Part shown: in pieces, positions 2,905 through 43,082 of the stretch
Layout: the number at the start of each line of letters is the position of its first letter
Position numbering within the stretch: the first letter of the stretch is position 1
DNA from: a virus
Taxonomy: Duplodnaviria; Caudoviricetes
IMG/VR virus record: IMGVR_UViG_3300010885_059224
Location: 1-64,000 of that record
Length of the DNA: 64,000 bases
Reading direction: 5' to 3' (one strand)
The notes under the pieces: generated by a model
What the model was told of the DNA's origin: nothing
Databases searched by the model: none
What the model saw: the letters and a program-made list of their open reading frames with translations, nothing else
Program-made: the position numbers and the translations under genes

Positions 2905-3348
2905 ATGGCCGATCTATTTAACCGTCAAGACACAACAATTAAGACCCCGGTAACGGCGGATAATTGCCTTATTACCTGGGGCGGCACTATCGCTGCTGCT
3001 ATGCAGGTTCAAATTTCTTACCAGCAGCAGGTTCAACGCCGCAGAACAATTGGTAACCAGAATGCAATCATTTACGCAACATATCCTGTGGGGCAAGTAA
3101 CAATTGCAAGGCTTATTGCAGACACCGGGTCTGATATATTTGGTGCGCAGGGTTGGTCAGCATGTACACCTGGACAAATCACATTCTCGATGACTGGTGG
3201 AAAAGGCAGCAATTGCTCAACAGGAGGCTTTAGCCTTACTGCTAGGGGTTGTGTTGTAAGCCAATACAGCCTCTCCGCAGAAGCAGAAGGATTAACTGTG
3301 GTTGATAATATCACCGTAGAGTTCATAGAATTAGTTCGCGCAGGCTGA
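2905..3348 (+). CDS. Tail tube protein
   Basis: 147 aa, beta-rich pattern (QVQISYQQQVQRRRTIG ... VVSQYSLSAEAEGLTVVDNITVEF), downstream of the sheath, AGGAG RBS, followed by a terminator. Confidence 0.6.
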   Translation: MADLFNRQDTTIKTPVTADNCLITWGGTIAAAMQVQISYQQQVQRRRTIGNQNAIIYATYPVGQVTIARLIADTGSDIFGAQGWSACTPGQITFSMTGGKGSNCSTGGFSLTARGCVVSQYSLSAEAEGLTVVDNITVEFIELVRAG

Positions 3349-3450: not shown

Positions 3451-5853
3451 ATGGATATTAAAGGATTATTCTCAGAAGCAACGAGAGAGTTTAGCACAGC
3501 GAATAGTACCGGCGGACAAATGTCGTTATTCACTGGGGTTGTGATAACCTCCACCGCAGCTACGTACACAGTTTCCGTGGTTAGGGAAAGCTACTCTACA
3601 GATAACGCAGATGGTGGAAACACCATACAAGGTATAGTGATTTCATCACACCTCGCATCATTCTTTGGCTTTAAAGAGGTATCTATTCCTCAGCCAGGTA
3701 GTCGTGTATTGTGTGCTTCTAGCAGTGTAAATACCTGCTATATTCTAGGAGTAATCCCGCAGAATAATTTGAGTTCTGAGCTCATACCTGGAAGAGTTAC
3801 TGCGGGAGCTGTGTGCGCAGGATCTGATGATGCGCAAAGAATGGGACACAAAGATAAGAATCCAGTTATACCCAATAACCGTAGACCCACTGATGTTGTT
3901 GATGGTGAATATGTGGTAGTTAATGAGTTTGGCGTGCTCTTAGGCTTATTTCAAGAACTAGCTACCCTCAAGGCTTCAGAATTATCTCAAGTACAATGCC
4001 ATCTGTTAGACGACCTTGTGCGGATTATCAGTCATAATTTCCAACATTATACCGCACTTGGAGAGTACAACGTTTGGCATGATGGTAAATCCTTAATGGC
4101 TGAATTTGGAGCTACACACATCCCTAGCGAAGGCCTCGGTCGCCCATCAGTAGATTCTGATAATGGTGGTGAACCTATATTTGAAAAGACTAGCAAAAAT
4201 AAACCAGATGACTCTGAAGATTTTTATAAAATAAAAGAAGATGAGAGAATTGTAGCTATAGAGAGGTTTAAAGTTTTCCTTGGGAGGCTTGGGGATTTTC
4301 TTCATGTATTTTTGGTAAAGCCGGACGATAAAGAAGTACGCACGCTAAACCCAGAAAACAAGCCTACAAAACCCGACACTGGGTTGTTTGATTTCCACCT
4401 CGGAACAGATGGTGGTGTACACATAAGAAGTGTAAAGGAAATATTTTTGGAAAAAACAAGTTGGATACGTGTACCGACCAGGTATAGCGCACCAGAAGAT
4501 CCAAAGGGAGATGACGCTACTGAAATAGCTTACGAAAAAAAAGAAGCATTCGAGTGGACTAATGACTACCAGTATAAAGAAAATCCTTATCATTATTTTT
4601 TACAAATCCGAGATTATGTTGCTTATGTTAACGAAGTCGCAGCATACAAAAATTTTAAAACCCACGAAAAAGACTTTTATGTTAATGACGAGCTAGATAA
4701 AGAAAAAAAGCTAAGCGAAATTCATAATGTCGATGAGCATACACCACTAGGACAAGAGCAATACAAACTAAGAGCCGCGGGTGTTTATTTAATGCCGAAT
4801 GGTGGAATAACTATTAAAGATGCTTGGAATAGTGCGATTGTAATGGAGGGCGGCAACATATATATCCAACCCGCAAAAGACCTTATAGTGCAACCCCTTC
4901 GTAATTTCATTGCGAAAGTGGGAGGTTGGACAAGTATAGCCAGCAAAGAAGACATAGATTTATCCTCTAGCGAAAAGGGGTTCAGGCTTAAGACGCAAAA
5001 GTCACAGTATTTTTACAGCGACGAGTCAGGCATAGTGCTCCAAGCTAACTCAAAAAATGCCAGCACAGGATCACCAGACCCAGCTGAAAACGCTATTTCC
5101 GATGTTGGAGGAATCGTACTCAAGTCTACAGTAGGCATATATAACTATGCAGAGACTGAGATTGTATATTTCGCAAAACAAAATATAACTTTTCAATCGC
5201 TTAAAAACATCTTCATAGAGGCGAAAGACTTATTAGGGTTATCATCATCAGATGGCCCTGTTTTAACCTACGCAAGCCAAATAGTTAGTGTAGGTGAGCA
5301 ATCTGCAATATTTATATCTACAGAGGGTTCAGCAATTTGCGCCGGAGCTAAAATTACAGCACTTGGTAAGAAAGATGAATATTTAGGTATTCAGTATGAC
5401 AAAGATAGCTTTTTTATTGATATTTTGAAGGGGGCTGTTCCATTTGATGAAATAACGACAGAACTAGCAAAGATTTCGCCCGCACTTAAAAACCCAATTC
5501 AGAACACAGTATTCAATACTGAAGATAAATTCAAACAGCTGGATTTTAAATTTTTATCCTCAGATATTTATGGTATAAGTGCAAGCTCAGACGCTATCCC
5601 GGCGACTATGGCACAGCAAGACGATCAGCTCACGGGGCTATACAGCTTAGAAGCTTGGGAAGAAAAAGAAATTAATAGTAGTTTCCCATACCCAGGTAAA
5701 GAGAAGTTTGATGAATTTTATCTAGCATCAGAAGCACCTAAAAATTTGCAAGTAGACCCATCAGGGAAGGGGTCAACCAGCAAAGCCAAATCAGAAAATA
5801 AGCCCGGCAAAATTACACTGAAGTCATTGAAGGAATACAAAATACAAAAATAA
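3451..5853 (+). CDS. Baseplate spike / VgrG-gp5-like puncturing protein
   Basis: N-terminal OB-fold-like signature (SIPQPGSRVLC..YILGVIP) and a long run of short beta-strand repeats (GGITIKD..IVMEGGNIYIQP); position in the tail operon. Confidence 0.5.
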   Translation: MDIKGLFSEATREFSTANSTGGQMSLFTGVVITSTAATYTVSVVRESYSTDNADGGNTIQGIVISSHLASFFGFKEVSIPQPGSRVLCASSSVNTCYILGVIPQNNLSSELIPGRVTAGAVCAGSDDAQRMGHKDKNPVIPNNRRPTDVVDGEYVVVNEFGVLLGLFQELATLKASELSQVQCHLLDDLVRIISHNFQHYTALGEYNVWHDGKSLMAEFGATHIPSEGLGRPSVDSDNGGEPIFEKTSKNKPDDSEDFYKIKEDERIVAIERFKVFLGRLGDFLHVFLVKPDDKEVRTLNPENKPTKPDTGLFDFHLGTDGGVHIRSVKEIFLEKTSWIRVPTRYSAPEDPKGDDATEIAYEKKEAFEWTNDYQYKENPYHYFLQIRDYVAYVNEVAAYKNFKTHEKDFYVNDELDKEKKLSEIHNVDEHTPLGQEQYKLRAAGVYLMPNGGITIKDAWNSAIVMEGGNIYIQPAKDLIVQPLRNFIAKVGGWTSIASKEDIDLSSSEKGFRLKTQKSQYFYSDESGIVLQANSKNASTGSPDPAENAISDVGGIVLKSTVGIYNYAETEIVYFAKQNITFQSLKNIFIEAKDLLGLSSSDGPVLTYASQIVSVGEQSAIFISTEGSAICAGAKITALGKKDEYLGIQYDKDSFFIDILKGAVPFDEITTELAKISPALKNPIQNTVFNTEDKFKQLDFKFLSSDIYGISASSDAIPATMAQQDDQLTGLYSLEAWEEKEINSSFPYPGKEKFDEFYLASEAPKNLQVDPSGKGSTSKAKSENKPGKITLKSLKEYKIQK

Positions 5854-33178: not shown

Positions 33179-33466
33179 ATGAGCCACGAAATAGTAGACA
33201 AGTTGATACAGGAAAACACAGATCTCAAAAATAACTTAGAGGTACATGCTAACATGGCGGTACAGCTTACAGTAACAAGAAATGAGCTAATGACTCAACT
33301 TGAGAAGCTTAATGAAAAGATTAAGGTACTGGAGAGTCATCCCAAGATTGTAAAAATTAATAAGAATGATGATAGAACATTCGTAAGCATCGACGACTTG
33401 TTTGAGATCCGTAGATCAGATAAAGCAGAAATAAAGAGACTCAGCCAACTTTTAAATGGGTGTTAA
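33179..33466 (+). CDS. Hypothetical coiled-coil protein (95 aa)
   Basis: Heptad-like L/E/K pattern; C/A-rich leader. Confidence 0.6.
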   Translation: MSHEIVDKLIQENTDLKNNLEVHANMAVQLTVTRNELMTQLEKLNEKIKVLESHPKIVKINKNDDRTFVSIDDLFEIRRSDKAEIKRLSQLLNGC

Positions 33467-33467
33467 C

Positions 33468-33503
33468 CCCCCCATTTATAATTATGGTTTTTTGCGGTAT
33501 AAT
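33468..33503 (+). promoter_or_regulatory. Promoter CCCCCCA-N21-GGTATAAT (copy 2), upstream of the ncRNA array
   Basis: TATAAT at 33498-33503 directly ahead of the first structured module. Confidence 0.6.
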
Positions 33504-33504
33504 A

Positions 33505-33624
33505 AAATGTAACCACGATTTGCTGGGCTCTATTAATTTAGGGTATAGCGGCAAATCAATTGGTTGACAACCCCACACACCCAACAACGTGCATCTTCTT
33601 CACAGAAGATAGCATGTTACATTT
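33505..33624 (+). ncRNA. Unassigned two-hairpin structured RNA
   Basis: GATTTGCTG/CGGCAAATC and ATCTTCT/AGAAGAT stems joined by a C/A-rich linker. Confidence 0.45.
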
Positions 33625-33656
33625 AGCTTTTTGGGGTGCACAGATCCTCATATTTT

Positions 33657-33757
33657 GAAACACTGCCTGAATAGGGCGCAGGGAGAACCTGCGACTACAC
33701 ATACCCGGTTATCTGTTTTCATAGGGACTATGTGGGTTGCAACACAGGCAGTGTTTC
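33657..33757 (+). ncRNA. Unassigned three-way-junction RNA (copy A)
   Basis: Perfect 13-bp closing stem GAAACACTGCCTG/CAGGCAGTGTTTC, CGCAGG-GAGAA-CCTGCG hairpin, long second arm. Confidence 0.65.
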
Positions 33758-33759
33758 TA

Positions 33760-33828
33760 ACTCGTCTATGCGAGTATAAATAGCCAACTAGGCATAGAGC
33801 GTCCCGGCTAAAATAGCTGGGGGATTGG
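33760..33828 (+). ncRNA. Pistol self-cleaving ribozyme
   Basis: P1 ACTCG/CGAGT; loop TCTATG pseudoknots with CATAGA; AAA linker; TAG/CTA; GCG; P3 TCCCGGCTA/TAGCTGGGG; P2 CCAA/TTGG; predicted cut G33823/A33824. Confidence 0.9.
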
Positions 33829-33992
33829 GCGCAAGAATGGAACGTATCGTAATTAAGTTACGCTCCCCTAATAGGTCAATATGGTATAACCCATATTTGG
33901 TGACAACCTCATAGGTCTCTGCAAAGACAATGAACAAATCACCCGCCTCGCTAATGACAATTGCAGAAGTCTTGGCAGGAACGCGCCCCGAA
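33824..33992 (+). ncRNA. Unassigned multibranch RNA starting at the pistol cleavage site
   Basis: GGGCGC/GCGCCC closing stem; CGTAAT/GTTACG, AATATGG/CCATATT and TCTGCAA/TTGCAGA stems. Confidence 0.55.
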
Positions 33993-33995
33993 TTT

Positions 33996-34112
33996 AAATA
34001 AGCTTGTGAGTAGAGCGCCCGGAGATCTGGCGACACGGTTAGTAGATTGATTTTTAACCACACGCTGGTGGTATTTAATCTGCTAAATGGTGATGATCAC
34101 ACAAACTTATTT
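33996..34112 (+). ncRNA. Unassigned three-way-junction RNA (copy B)
   Basis: 12/13-bp closing stem AAATAAGCTTGTG/CACAAACTTATTT; shares a 26-nt core with copy A; TTAGTAGATTG/TAATCTGCTAA arm. Confidence 0.65.
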
Positions 34113-34164
34113 TTAACTGTCCCCTCCCCTAAACCAAAACACCAACCATAACCATAAAACAAAC

Positions 34165-34947
34165 ATGGCTAAAAACGTAGAAGTAATAGATTGGGCTTCA
34201 CCTGCCCGTAAGGCAAAAAGAGACAATGATCTTTATATCAATAGGGATCTCAAGAAGCTCATGACATATCGTGAGTATAGAAATCAACCAGTTAATGTTT
34301 TATCATTACCTGCAGAGAAGTGGCTGTGGGAGAGCCAGTTGATTCAGAACTTCCCTAATAATAAGATTAACTTTCTAGGCACAGAGTCAAATCCTGTAGT
34401 TTATAAGAAAGCGCTAGAAGTAGCTACCACGATTAATGGTAAAAACGTAAAAACAGAACTACTACCCAACAAATGGGAAGAAGTGGTGGTTAGAGATTTT
34501 AACTCTAGGATGTTTAATCCCACAGATGCTGGTTTTGACATCATTTACGGGGACTTCATGGGTACATTTAATAGAGGCATTATAGGCTATATAGAAGAAC
34601 TATTGAGTGATACCGAAATGTTAAAACCTCTTGGTAATATTATTTTTACATTCATGCTTGCTCGTGGATGTAAATATACCAGAGAGGAAACAATAAAGAT
34701 CGGGGAGAAATCCGCTTATAGACATCAGCTCTATGTTGATGACGATAAGATGTGGCTACGGAACACCAAAAACAACACCTCAAATCTGGTACATACATAT
34801 GCTCTGGGCATTATGGAAACAGTTGTGTTAATCGCCAAGAAGTTTGGTAAGGTATTAATACCCGCTAAACCTCACGTTTATTATAGCCCAGGAGCTAACG
34901 GAGCAGAACTTCCAGAAGGCAGCTTTTGCTTTACTAGGCTTAAATAA
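34165..34947 (+). CDS. Class I SAM-dependent methyltransferase-like protein
   Basis: Rossmann MTase strand order: NVLSLPAE (motif I-like), FLGTESNP (II), FDIIYGDFMG (IV), LKPLGNIIFTF (VI); motif I is degenerate. Confidence 0.5.
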   Translation: MAKNVEVIDWASPARKAKRDNDLYINRDLKKLMTYREYRNQPVNVLSLPAEKWLWESQLIQNFPNNKINFLGTESNPVVYKKALEVATTINGKNVKTELLPNKWEEVVVRDFNSRMFNPTDAGFDIIYGDFMGTFNRGIIGYIEELLSDTEMLKPLGNIIFTFMLARGCKYTREETIKIGEKSAYRHQLYVDDDKMWLRNTKNNTSNLVHTYALGIMETVVLIAKKFGKVLIPAKPHVYYSPGANGAELPEGSFCFTRLK

Positions 34948-34969: not shown

Positions 34970-35403
34970 GGGGGCGTTACTGGCACTCGACTCCAGAAAT
35001 AGATAACACACCTACATGCGGAGGATCTCAGTTGGCCTCCTTAATCATCTGGGAAAAAACTAAAAGCAGCCTCTAACGAGACGCTTGCTCCTAGCCTCGC
35101 CGAGGCAGACGCCATTCTTGCAAAGTTTGGCTATGCTGACGCTGAGCTCCTCGCTGCCTAACCGCAGCGGAGAAATCCGCTAGTTGCAATAACGGTACAA
35201 GGACGCCCGATGCCATGTACTTCAAACGGGTACCTCGATTATATTGTGAGGGTATAATTCATATATGCACCAATTGCATTAAGTTGGGAATCTGAACTAC
35301 GCATTTACACATTATTGTAGTTCTTATATTAAATGTGAAAAGCATGTACACGGTTGTTTGAAATATCTGGAACACAGGGGTTCGAATCCCCTCGCCTCCA
35401 CCA
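34970..35403 (+). ncRNA. ssrA: tmRNA, encoded tag AASNETLAPSLAEADAILAKFGYADAELLAA
   Basis: GGGGGCG..CTCGAC 5' end; GGGGTTCGAATCCCCTCGCCTCCACCA 3' end with G3:U pair; CATGC/GCATG helix; tag ORF 35066-35161 ending LAA-stop. Confidence 0.95.
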
Positions 35404-38099: not shown

Positions 38100-38174
38100 T
38101 CCTGATTAGCTCAATGGTAGAGCAGTGAGCTGTTAACTCGCATGTTGTTGGTTCGAGTCCAGCATCAGGAGCCA
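38100..38174 (+). tRNA. tRNA-Asn (GTT)
   Basis: Cloverleaf, anticodon loop CTGTTAA, T-loop TTCGAGT, encoded CCA. Confidence 0.95.
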
Positions 38175-38262
38175 GATTTGAGATGTTTGGGTCGCTCCCA
38201 ACTGAAGGGCAAACGCAGGATCAGGCCAACGAGATACAAATAAACCCTGCACAATTTTAAAT

Positions 38263-38333
38263 TACCCTGTGGTGTAACGGTAACACTTTAGTTTTTGGCA
38301 CTAACATTCATGGTTCAAATCCATGCGGGGTAG
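38263..38333 (+). tRNA. tRNA-Gln (TTG)
   Basis: TACCCTG/CGGGGTA acceptor with U1:A72, loop TTTTGGC; no encoded CCA. Confidence 0.9.
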
Positions 38334-38350
38334 TATATAATAATTTATCT

Positions 38351-38424
38351 GGAGTTGTAGCTCAATTGGTCAGAGCACCGCCCTGTCACGGCGGGGGTTG
38401 CGAGTTCGAGCCTCGTCAACTCCG
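38351..38424 (+). tRNA. tRNA-Asp (GTC)
   Basis: GGAGTTG/CAACTCC acceptor, loop CTGTCAC, G73; no encoded CCA. Confidence 0.95.
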
Positions 38425-38438
38425 GATTACATTTTAAT

Positions 38439-38513
38439 GCACGATTAGCTTAGCGGTAGAGCAGGTCCTTTACACGGACAAGGTCGGGGGTTCGATTCCC
38501 TCATCGTGCACCA
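38439..38513 (+). tRNA. tRNA-Val (TAC)
   Basis: GCACGAT/ATCGTGC acceptor, loop TTTACAC, encoded CCA. Confidence 0.95.
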
Positions 38514-38514
38514 C

Positions 38515-38587
<73 letters not shown>

Positions 38588-38597
38588 CAAATTTAAT

Positions 38598-38683
38598 GGG
38601 TAGATACCGAAGCGGTCAAACGGGGTAGACTGTAAATCTACTGGCATTAGCCTTCGAAGGTTCGAGTCCTTCTCTGCCCACCA
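38598..38683 (+). tRNA. tRNA-Tyr (GTA)
   Basis: Loop CTGTAAA, long variable arm, encoded CCA. Confidence 0.95.
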
Positions 38684-42242: not shown

Positions 42243-42284
42243 ACCTCCCACGCCTCTCACTGAAGCGCACCAGGGAGGTTTTTT
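42243..42284 (+). terminator. Probable rho-independent terminator
   Basis: ACCTCCC/GGGAGGT stem plus T-tract; unusually long loop. Confidence 0.5.
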
Positions 42285-43010: not shown

Positions 43011-43082
43011 CGCAGAGTAGAGAAACGGTATCTCGCAACGCTCATAACGTTGAGACAGCAGGTTCAACTCCTGCCTCTGCCA
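43011..43082 (+). tRNA. tRNA-Met (CAT), initiator-like
   Basis: C1xC72 mismatch, A11:U24, loop CTCATAA, T-loop TTCAACT; no encoded CCA. Confidence 0.85.

Follow-up and report, generated by a model that had tools for sequence, protein, structure and literature searches.

Two diverged copies of a three-way-junction RNA in a phage non-coding cluster belong to a large family from uncultured phages and may act as cis-acting receptors

What occupies a 698-nt gap between two open reading frames (ORFs) of an uncultured phage, and what might RNA made from it do? The gap lies between the ORFs at 33179–33466 and 34165–34947, with no convincing ORF inside, in the 64-kb stretch analyzed here (hereafter the window), which is part of the 73.8-kb IMG/VR virus record IMGVR_UViG_3300010885_059224 (estimated completeness, 38%). 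An initial annotation, made from the letters of the window, had placed in this gap two paralogous three-way-junction RNAs and had proposed that they represent a new family with a constant protein-binding handle and a variable arm, reminiscent of guide or decoy RNAs. We found that these two RNAs, called copies A and B, are almost certainly diverged members of one large family of ~70–120-nt three-way-junction RNAs carried on the gene-sense strand of uncultured phages. We regard it as a new RNA family; the explanation that we prefer as a whole, in which membership of this family is combined with a role as a folded receptor, has in our estimation a probability of roughly 40%.

The sequences and folds of the two copies were largely as first described. 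The core strings are AATAGGGCGCAGGGAGAACCTGCGAC from position 33670 in copy A and AGTAGAGCGCCCGGAGATCTGGCGAC from position 34009 in copy B, the same starts as had been given, and our own column count returned the same 19 identical columns out of 26. A degenerate core pattern, allowing up to two mismatches on both strands of the 64 kb, matched only copies A and B, and it had no match in 100 dinucleotide-preserving shuffles. Both copies fold as a three-way junction (copy A, −42.9 kcal/mol, z-score (z) = −5.15; copy B, −35.1 kcal/mol, z = −3.85), in which a closing stem (P1) encloses a short hairpin (P2, with its loop L2) and a second arm (P3), linked by the junction strands J12, J23, and J31. 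The parts are as follows.

33657 to 33757, plus strand: copy A, three-way-junction RNA, subtype 1, divergent
33657 to 33669 with 33745 to 33757: P1 of copy A, 13 bp
33670 to 33676: J12 of copy A, AAUAGGG
33677 to 33682 with 33688 to 33693: P2 of copy A, with L2 GAGAA at 33683 to 33687 and J23 AC at 33694 to 33695
33698 to 33734: P3 of copy A, an extended hairpin
33735 to 33744: J31 of copy A, GGUUGCAACA
33996 to 34112, plus strand: copy B, three-way-junction RNA, subtype 2
33996 to 34008 with 34100 to 34112: P1 of copy B, 12 bp and one C.A mismatch
34009 to 34015: J12 of copy B, AGUAGAG
34016 to 34021 with 34027 to 34032: P2 of copy B, with one C.U, L2 GAGAU at 34022 to 34026 and J23 AC at 34033 to 34034
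about 34035 to 34092: P3 of copy B, a long arm, followed by J31 UGAUCA at 34094 to 34099

The 13-bp closing stems of the initial annotation are thus fully paired in copy A and interrupted by the C.A mismatch in copy B. The A:U to C:G swap that it had reported between the two hairpins was located at the fourth pair of P2, and the fifth pair, which it did not mention, is G:C in copy A and the C.U mismatch in copy B; in both copies P2 opens with C-G and G-C. The second arms (33698–33734 and about 34035–34092) do differ in sequence, as it had said. One boundary had to be corrected: copy A ends at 33757, and not at the boundary of the pistol ribozyme that follows it. Copy A also has two private departures, namely UAGGG (G for A at box position 4) and one inserted C in J31 (UGCAACA).

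A close relative of this phage (L005, with a flanking protein 96% identical) carries the same locus, and the P3 arm of its copy A is the most changed stretch when compared to the window. This arm has been rewritten and still forms a stable hairpin, while P2 is kept through two C-to-U changes giving U.G pairs. A public contig from another run is the same variant as L005, with changes clustering in 33687–33758, versus one in the pistol and one in copy B. Contigs of four DNA runs contained only the L005-like strain variant, and the public runs listed with this stretch were all represented by contigs, none of them from RNA. In L005 (about 5060–5190, minus strand) and in one public contig, an extra ~110–125 nt is found just upstream of copy A that is absent from the window (33634–33652).

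Homologs of the two copies were retrieved with patterns of decreasing stringency. The exact core pattern matched three IMG/VR viral stretches, namely L005 and two unrelated contigs (L003 and L004), both of which carry compact junctions of ~75 nt with the same core. A looser pattern matched 33 viral stretches, 32 of which contain the full junction; L027, a match with no P1 and no J31 that was also missed by the covariance model R1 described below, was set aside as due to chance. The loosest pattern, in which the third P2 pair was freed and the J31 box was required, matched 53 stretches in IMG/VR and at least 119 stretches among metagenome contigs, the latter being a lower bound, with 80 loci among the matches listed. 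A stricter gapped pattern, which fixes the C-G-C start of P2, found no true copy in 185,579 prokaryote species represented by one genome each; its single match (L036) lies in G+C-rich sequence, has no P1 and a non-pairing 'P2', gave a partial score of 20.4 bits, and was rejected. Blastn searches of the region and of the 8 kb around it against cultured phages gave no match, and those of the L010 and L134 copies against 50,697 GenBank phage records, at an expectation value (E) ≤ 10, gave only short chance matches off the core. As far as these searches reach, the family appears to be confined to uncultured viral and metagenomic DNA.

The G+C content of the element ranges from 0.41 to 0.71 across copies. 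A single locus, with either one copy or a tandem pair, was found in all five of the other records analyzed (four of them at least 90% complete), and the 73.8-kb record of the window contains copies A and B only. At least 11 loci contain two diverged copies in tandem (L006, L008, L009, L012, L017, L041, L046, L048, L062, L100, and L121), and the pair in the window consists of one subtype 1 copy and one subtype 2 copy.

The part of the earlier proposal that concerns a new family with a constant core and a variable arm was borne out by comparison with known RNAs. Rfam 15 (4227 models, including hammerhead, twister, twister-sister, hatchet, hepatitis delta virus (HDV)-like, pistol, riboswitch, transfer RNA (tRNA), and RAGATH motif models) gave at E ≤ 10 only the pistol at 33760–33828 in the region 33400–34200, and nothing over copies A and B. 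No match at the gathering threshold was obtained over 14 viral loci (146 kb), and no match overlapping the element at E ≤ 1 over 15 metagenome loci (45 kb). In the literature, as far as the sources were accessible, no description of the motif was found; term searches gave no mention of it in the main text of an IMG/VR-based catalogue of more than ten thousand candidate viral RNAs (PMC10690425), the supplements of which might list it.

The proposed fold was also supported by covariation in all three helices. In 18 viral copies aligned with MAFFT, with the three-helix structure imposed, 89.2% of cells were paired, versus 33–43% when the partner was slid, and both sides had changed in 12 of 12 P1 pairs and 4 of 6 P2 pairs. 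Model R1, built from this alignment, recovered 35 matches in the viral loci and 73 among the metagenome loci listed. It scored copy A at 39.5 bits (E = 1.4e-7) and copy B at 27 bits, with the 3' end of the latter misplaced because of its long P3. Among 62 distinct metagenome copies, whose alignment is model-fitted and leans towards the structure, 94.1% of cells were paired versus 30–40% after sliding, with both-side changes in 19 of 21 pairs, including all three P3 pairs. Model R2 was then built from metagenome rows only, with no window sequences. It scored 51.7 bits on copy A (E = 3.3e-11) and 39.9 bits on copy B (E = 4.3e-8), the latter being matched over its full length; its alignment showed the J31 boxes of both, and nothing else in the 64-kb window was matched at E ≤ 10. 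None of the outcomes that the initial annotation had named as refuting its proposal (a lack of further homologs, a lack of covariation, or an existing Rfam family) was thus obtained.

The non-canonical pairs also indicate the strand that is read. In 93 distinct rows, 102 G.U or U.G pairs were counted versus 38 A.C or C.A pairs. In a separate set of 84 parsed copies, 20 A.C pairs fell at the loop-closing P2 pair 6, and P2 pairs 3–5 contained 15 G.U or U.G versus one A.C. The excess of G.U over A.C therefore points to an RNA read from the strand carrying the flanking genes, the plus strand in the window, and the element lies on the strand of its neighbors in every locus examined.

The 84 parsed distinct copies, with 41–43 lineage representatives, gave the consensus, which reads from 5' to 3': P1, NN-UAGAG, a P2 hairpin with a GAGAN loop, AC, a variable P3, UGAACA or UGAUCA, and P1'. 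P1 is freely covarying and measures about 9–15 bp, with extremes of 7 and 17 bp and a modal length of 11–12 bp in 20 of 41 representatives. J12 is N-N-UAGAG, in which UAGAG is near-invariant. P2 is a G+C-rich stem of 5–6 bp with a purine-rich pentaloop; its first two pairs (C-G and G-C) are invariant in all 84 parsed copies and the next three covary, and positions 1–4 of the GAGAN loop are invariant in 41 of 41 representatives, the AC linker (J23) coming next. P3, which is 18–59 nt long across the 41 lineage representatives, usually starts with GGG and ends with CCC, although other, covarying pairs also occur there, and in most members it is a short GGG/CCC-type hairpin with a loop of ~9–16 nt. 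J31 consists of 2–6 nt followed by UGAACA and ends in U-G/U-A-N-C-A. The junction strands are 7, 2, and at least 8 nt long, and the element contains ~20 near-invariant unpaired bases. The flanks of P1 are G-poor (G in at most 6 of 41 representatives at −4 to −1 and at most 3 of 41 at +1 to +3), the 5' flank being U-rich at −3 to −1 (U at −1 in 24 of 41) and the 3' flank C/U-rich (C at both +2 and +3 in at most 16 of 41). Two further pairings were considered by inspection, a pseudoknot of the U-rich 5' flank with the GAGA loop and a pairing of this flank with P3 loops, and both were rejected as inconsistent across lineages.

Two core subtypes were distinguished. The common subtype 1, to which copy A belongs, has [A/C/U]UAGAG, GAGA[A/G], and UGAACA, and subtype 2, to which copy B belongs, has GUAGAG, GAGA[U/C], and UGAUCA. 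When G precedes UAGAG, J31 position 4 is U (once C) and loop position 5 is a pyrimidine in 12 of 12 lineages; with any other base before UAGAG, J31 position 4 is A in 30 of 31 lineages and loop position 5 is a purine in 29 of 31. These three core positions vary together; our reading is that the loop and the two junction strands come together in a single core.

The genomic neighborhood bears on where the element would act. In 22 of 43 lineages, the element is followed within 35 nt by the start of an ORF of at least 50 aa, and, also in 22 of 43, it is preceded within 12 nt by the stop of an upstream ORF. The proximity of a start codon on the sense strand in about half of the lineages suggests an action in cis. 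Among 20 downstream ORFs scanned, seven encode an HTH_17 protein and four a family A DNA polymerase, the others being unknown or weak; a collagen-like protein is also found among the downstream genes. Upstream, a deoxynucleoside monophosphate (dNMP) kinase was identified in three of 10 ORFs scanned and an Enc34-type single-stranded DNA (ssDNA)-binding protein in one, and the commoner neighbors farther away are a PD-(D/E)XK nuclease and a RecT-like protein, the latter a weak match (E 0.0098, 15.9 bits vs. a 24-bit cut-off). An all-against-all blastp of 1664 ORFs from 82 sources revealed no universal protein partner, the widest family occurring in 11 lineages, from short contigs. Sense-strand terminators were found within 300 nt downstream in four of 43 lineages, compared to four upstream and 12 antisense, with no enrichment.

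Several groups of loci have an arrangement of their own. In the HTH_17 group, a promoter-like sequence (TTGACA/TTGCAA-N17-xAxxxT) lies a few to ~20 nt upstream of the element. In three HTH_17-linked subgroups (L006, L016, and L031), a conserved ATGACCAATTTT is located ~12 nt upstream of P1; in L016, a short frame begins at this ATG, continues across the element, and has a stop that appears to overlap the HTH_17 start, and this frame, as read from the sequence, could be a leader peptide or due to chance. In the L010 group, a terminator-like hairpin precedes the element, and a strong terminator (23 nt 3') separates it from the polymerase gene. In the L044 and L032 groups, the element comes after a small ORF and is itself followed by further hairpins, with no nearby ORF. 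A conserved trio, formed by two near-perfect inverted repeats GUAACUC...GAGUUAC around a G+C-rich hairpin, is present 3' of the element in L044 (4500–4600), L084, L061, L069, L072, L075, L083, L112, L032, L120, and L133; it had no Rfam match at E ≤ 1, and in L044-type loci a terminator-like hairpin comes next. The first of the GUAACUC-type repeats opens with the same ACUCG letters as the first stem of the pistol in the window. In L004 (minus strand), the junction RNA lies between two degenerate tRNA-like elements, at 2874–2939 (19.2 bits) and 3038–3111 (22.9 bits), both scoring under the tRNA gathering cut-off and neither reported by ARAGORN; the upstream one terminates with CCA, four bases ahead of P1. 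A hairpin, GGCAGACCGGAUAAAGUCUGCC, with a preceding GCU, was seen downstream of the element in two otherwise different groups, on the minus strands of L010 (about 3490–3520) and L004 (about 2660–2690). In one subtype 2 group, a conserved small protein with the shared block ...SIPHEPNI...VGDACEAWL... and no significant Pfam match is encoded by the ORF that stops immediately upstream of the element (L134 706–975, L025 9486–9767, L032 3389–3643, L120, L090, and L104).

From these data, we tentatively favor, at somewhat less than even odds, a cis-acting folded receptor RNA in the leaders of early or replication genes. The element would be an autonomously folding receptor module that occupies one genomic site, either within the leader of early or DNA-metabolism genes or within a spacer separating their cistrons. 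Its long P1 would insulate a compact core, in which the GNRA-like GAGA loop and two junction strands may form one pocket. We infer that a conserved partner, which might be a protein of phage or host or else the machinery of transcription or translation, could recognize this pocket, and that this recognition might set the fate of the downstream cistron through its translation, stability, or read-through. The broad G+C range of the copies fits a conserved partner. Terminators, promoters, and routine RNase sites are generic signals present in many copies, and a role of this kind is disfavored by the restriction of the element to one locus per genome. Sense orientation, closeness to start codons, tandem forms, and core subtypes suit a cis-acting regulatory receptor.

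Several observations weigh against this interpretation. No protein family accompanies the element across lineages, and the downstream genes are heterogeneous (HTH_17, polymerase, collagen-like protein, and many unknowns). The visible Shine-Dalgarno-like sequences (L126 and L137) lie outside P1, in a free linker, which excludes simple occlusion of a ribosome site as the mechanism. A helix that switches would not be expected to be as long and stable as P1. Some members are located outside leaders, as in the L044 and L032 groups and between the tRNA-like elements of L004, and copy A of the window precedes a pistol ribozyme and not a gene. Moreover, the association that defines the subtypes may result from shared descent rather than from physical contact.

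The position of copy A next to a ribozyme calls for a description of the whole non-coding cluster (33467–34164), whose other features are given below.

33475 to 33503, plus strand: sigma-70-like promoter match, TTTATA-17-TATAAT, 10 of 12 positions, just past the upstream ORF, from a consensus scan alone
33515 to 33656: structured stretch of two hairpin domains, downstream of the promoter-like site and upstream of copy A, −42 kcal/mol, z = −4.34
33760 to 33828, plus strand: pistol ribozyme, RF02679, 61.5 bits vs. a gathering score of 34.5
33827 to 33988, plus strand: multi-hairpin domain (~160 nt) in the interval from the pistol to copy B, with a GGGCGC/GCGCCC closure, −49.8 kcal/mol, z = −3.24

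The cluster thus reads as a promoter-like site, a hairpin domain, copy A, the pistol, the multi-hairpin domain, copy B, and a C/A-rich leader, followed by the ORF at 34165. The promoter match could, judging from its sequence, drive the whole cluster, and both copies and the intervening pistol are probably on one transcript. The pistol begins two bases past the end of copy A and is conserved in L005 (60.5 bits); it is a neighbor of the three-way-junction family and lies outside it. The multi-hairpin domain, nearly unchanged in L005, is the 'downstream RNA' that, with the pistol, had correctly been described as flanked by the two copies. Neither this domain (at E ≤ 10) nor the stretch at 33515–33656 had an Rfam match, and PHROGs and Pfam scans of the flanking ORFs of the window returned nothing informative near the element. 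Downstream of the cluster, the window also contains a phage-encoded transfer-messenger RNA (34970–35403, 76.8 bits), with a tag of 30 residues according to ARAGORN, and seven tRNA genes (Asn, Gln, Asp, Val, Ala, Tyr, and Met, at 38100–38683 and 43011–43082) with no suppressor tRNA. A borderline match to the abiF RNA (RF03085, 37.3 bits vs. a gathering score of 37) was obtained at 42244–42279.

This arrangement raises the possibility, which we consider unlikely, that the element is a new class of self-cleaving ribozyme, in which the junction and loop would form the active site and the RNA would be cut at or near the 5' edge of P1, so that the upstream RNA would be freed and the folded junction would remain at the 5' end of the downstream RNA, protecting it as a cap. 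A small junction RNA with ~20 near-invariant unpaired bases, found only in phage or metagenome DNA, is what one might expect of such a class, and most copies of the newer ribozyme classes are likewise in phage or metagenome DNA. Copy A abuts the pistol, which lies between the two copies, the sequences bordering P1 are single-stranded and poor in G, and the location between the stop of one ORF (within 12 nt in 22 of 43 lineages) and the start of another (within 35 nt in 22 of 43) is insulator-like. The L004 element, starting 4 nt past the CCA end of a tRNA-like element, has a placement resembling that of the HDV-like ribozymes reported beside phage tRNAs. However, no likeness to known ribozyme models was seen at E ≤ 10, and the 146 kb and 45 kb of related loci contained no ribozyme or other Rfam family. 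The link to the pistol is limited to the lineage of the window, as none of the five other element-bearing records (four at least 90% complete) has a pistol, a result that is weak since its control matched no reference genome. There is also a precedent against it: several structured RNAs located beside ribozymes did not cleave on testing, according to the accessible portion of PMC6765202. A more specific version, in which copies A and B and the pistol would form a cassette of three ribozymes carving a ~650-nt leader, with the element being a phage-exclusive ribozyme that cuts at the 5' edge of P1, appears slightly less probable still.

Rather doubtful, too, is recognition of the nascent RNA by the host machinery, either as an RNA polymerase-binding processive antiterminator of the HK022 put or lambda nut type or as the substrate of a single cut by ribonuclease (RNase) P, E, or III. 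In the RNase form, a tRNA-like or stem-plus-flank substrate would be cut once at the head of an early or replication transcript. Conservation of the core over copies of 0.41 to 0.71 G+C would fit a universal host partner, and the element is phage-only, with one or two copies per genome. Its location a few to ~20 nt past a promoter-like site in the HTH_17 group is also in line with this reading, as is the L010 group, where a strong terminator 23 nt 3' precedes the polymerase gene; if the RNA were tethered to polymerase, a second copy past the pistol cut site would make sense. The P2 stem and its purine-rich pentaloop recall the general shape of boxB hairpins, a short G+C-rich stem with a purine-rich pentaloop. 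For a processing enzyme, the modal P1 of 11–12 bp (20 of 41 representatives) and the L004 element within a tRNA-like array could be invoked. But P1 varies from 7 to 17 bp, with no strict ruler, neither the CC of the 3' flank (at most 16 of 41) nor the U at −1 (24 of 41) is general, downstream terminators are not enriched (4 of 43 lineages), and generic RNase sites would be expected many times per genome, whereas the element occurs at one locus.

It is improbable that the element is a riboswitch, with a junction pocket accommodating a small molecule related to infection or to the supply of nucleotides. In such a case, the core subtypes would differ in specificity, and tandem copies would serve to make the response sharper or to combine responses. 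The conserved junction with a variable peripheral arm is aptamer-like, the subtypes differ by correlated changes at three core positions, and tandem arrangements exist, including the pairing of subtype 1 with subtype 2 in the window. The element also occupies one locus per genome (5 of 5 records), and its neighbors act in DNA metabolism (dNMP kinase, DNA polymerase, and ssDNA-binding protein). Known riboswitch classes are mainly bacterial, yet the 185,579 prokaryote species genomes contain no true copy. Furthermore, P1, at 9–15 bp, is stable, with no visible alternative pairing or expression platform; sense terminators follow in only 4 of 43 lineages, Shine-Dalgarno-like sequences are not sequestered, and some copies have no downstream gene.

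The guide or decoy function put forward in the initial annotation, in which a trans-acting RNA would combine a constant protein handle with a programmable arm, did not hold up as its family did, and we regard it as very unlikely. P3 does vary in length (18–59 nt) and sequence, the changes between the window and L005 pile up in the P3 of copy A, with both versions being stable hairpins, and the L010, L044, and L032 groups may be stand-alone transcripts. Nevertheless, most P3 arms are short hairpins whose bases are self-paired, and half of the lineages are mRNA leaders, a position suited to action in cis. A search of the variable arms against the 73.8 kb of the phage's own record gave one 12-mer match per arm versus 0.44 expected, that is, no complementarity beyond chance. 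No universal neighboring protein exists, and no reverse transcriptase (RT) or nuclease is consistently nearby, RT (PF00078) being absent from the own record (0 of 1, 38% complete) and from the other element-bearing records (0 of 5).

An element acting at the DNA level or in replication, as an origin-associated primer RNA or an ssDNA structure used once per genome, is hardly probable: it would account for the single locus and for the DNA polymerase, dNMP kinase, ssDNA-binding, RecT-like (weak), and PD-(D/E)XK neighbors, but G.U pairs outnumber A.C pairs, which indicates an RNA read from a single strand, orientation follows the flanking genes in all loci examined, and no AT-rich unwinding element or iterons turned up, with no search aimed at them.

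If the family is as it appears, it is among the more widespread unnamed structured RNAs exclusive to phages, with a core conserved at the level seen in ribozymes and riboswitches. Whatever the element binds or catalyzes, it is likely to concern a general step of the infection program of many uncultured lytic phages. The compact members of ~75 nt (L003, L010, and L013) are ready-made constructs for assays and structure work. In the window itself, what had been a 700-nt 'gap' is resolved into a cassette of five or more RNA domains in a defined order, probably carried on one transcript.

Comparison with known systems places the element apart from each of them. The non-coding RNA arrays of the UG27 RTs, as described in the accessible part of their report (bioRxiv 10.64898/2026.09.22.753630), consist of hairpin units of ~135–167 nt with an asymmetric internal loop and a pseudoknot, beside the RT and two accessory genes. 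They are likewise phage-encoded and repeated, with units that are conserved in structure and diverse in sequence and that carry a variable hairpin, and the UG27 unit has a UANAG-type box. The element differs from what that part of the report describes, being composed of three-way junctions of 70–120 nt, one or two per genome, and it lacks the defining features of UG27 units. With the three-way-junction riboswitch aptamers (purine, and glycine including its tandem form), it shares a conserved junction pocket, variable peripheral helices, tandem copies, and correlated core subtypes; its P1 is much longer, and it has no expression platform, no Rfam riboswitch match, and no copy in the prokaryote genomes scanned.

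The nut and put antitermination RNAs are exclusive to phages, each genome having one or two; they are cis-acting and are located past early promoters, on the sense strand. P2 can be likened to the boxB-type hairpin of nut (boxA/boxB) or HK022 put sites, a short G+C stem with a purine pentaloop. The element, in contrast, is made of two hairpins closed by a long P1 and has conserved junction strands, with no enrichment of downstream terminators (4 of 43 lineages) and no N-like protein identified. As for tRNA, ARAGORN found no gene at copy A or B, there was no tRNA match at E ≤ 10, and when the P2 loop is read as 7 nt its second position is G and not U.

In twister-sister, an internal loop separating P1 from P2 serves as the catalytic center and contains a C-A cleavage site, according to the accessible part of PMC11620745. 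This ribozyme resembles the element in that it forms a junction, of three or four helices in its case, and is largely metagenomic; P1 and P2 of the element are uninterrupted helices, so that an internal loop of the kind described there is not present, and no Rfam match was found. The hammerhead is also a three-way junction whose strands between the helices are conserved and rich in purines, whose helices vary, and whose closure can, as in the element, be provided by any of the stems. Its junction strands are 7, 3, and 1 nt long, those of the element 7, 2, and at least 8 nt; the conserved letters differ, no circular permutation fits by inspection, and the Rfam hammerhead model had no match at E ≤ 10 over the region of copies A and B. 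A resemblance to the hammerhead, hairpin, 5S, or tRNA was set aside on the basis of the junction strand lengths and of the Rfam result. Finally, the pistol (RF02679) is, like the element, a small, phage-borne structured RNA on the sense strand; it is built from a hairpin, a pseudoknot, and two stems, whereas the element is a closed three-way junction.

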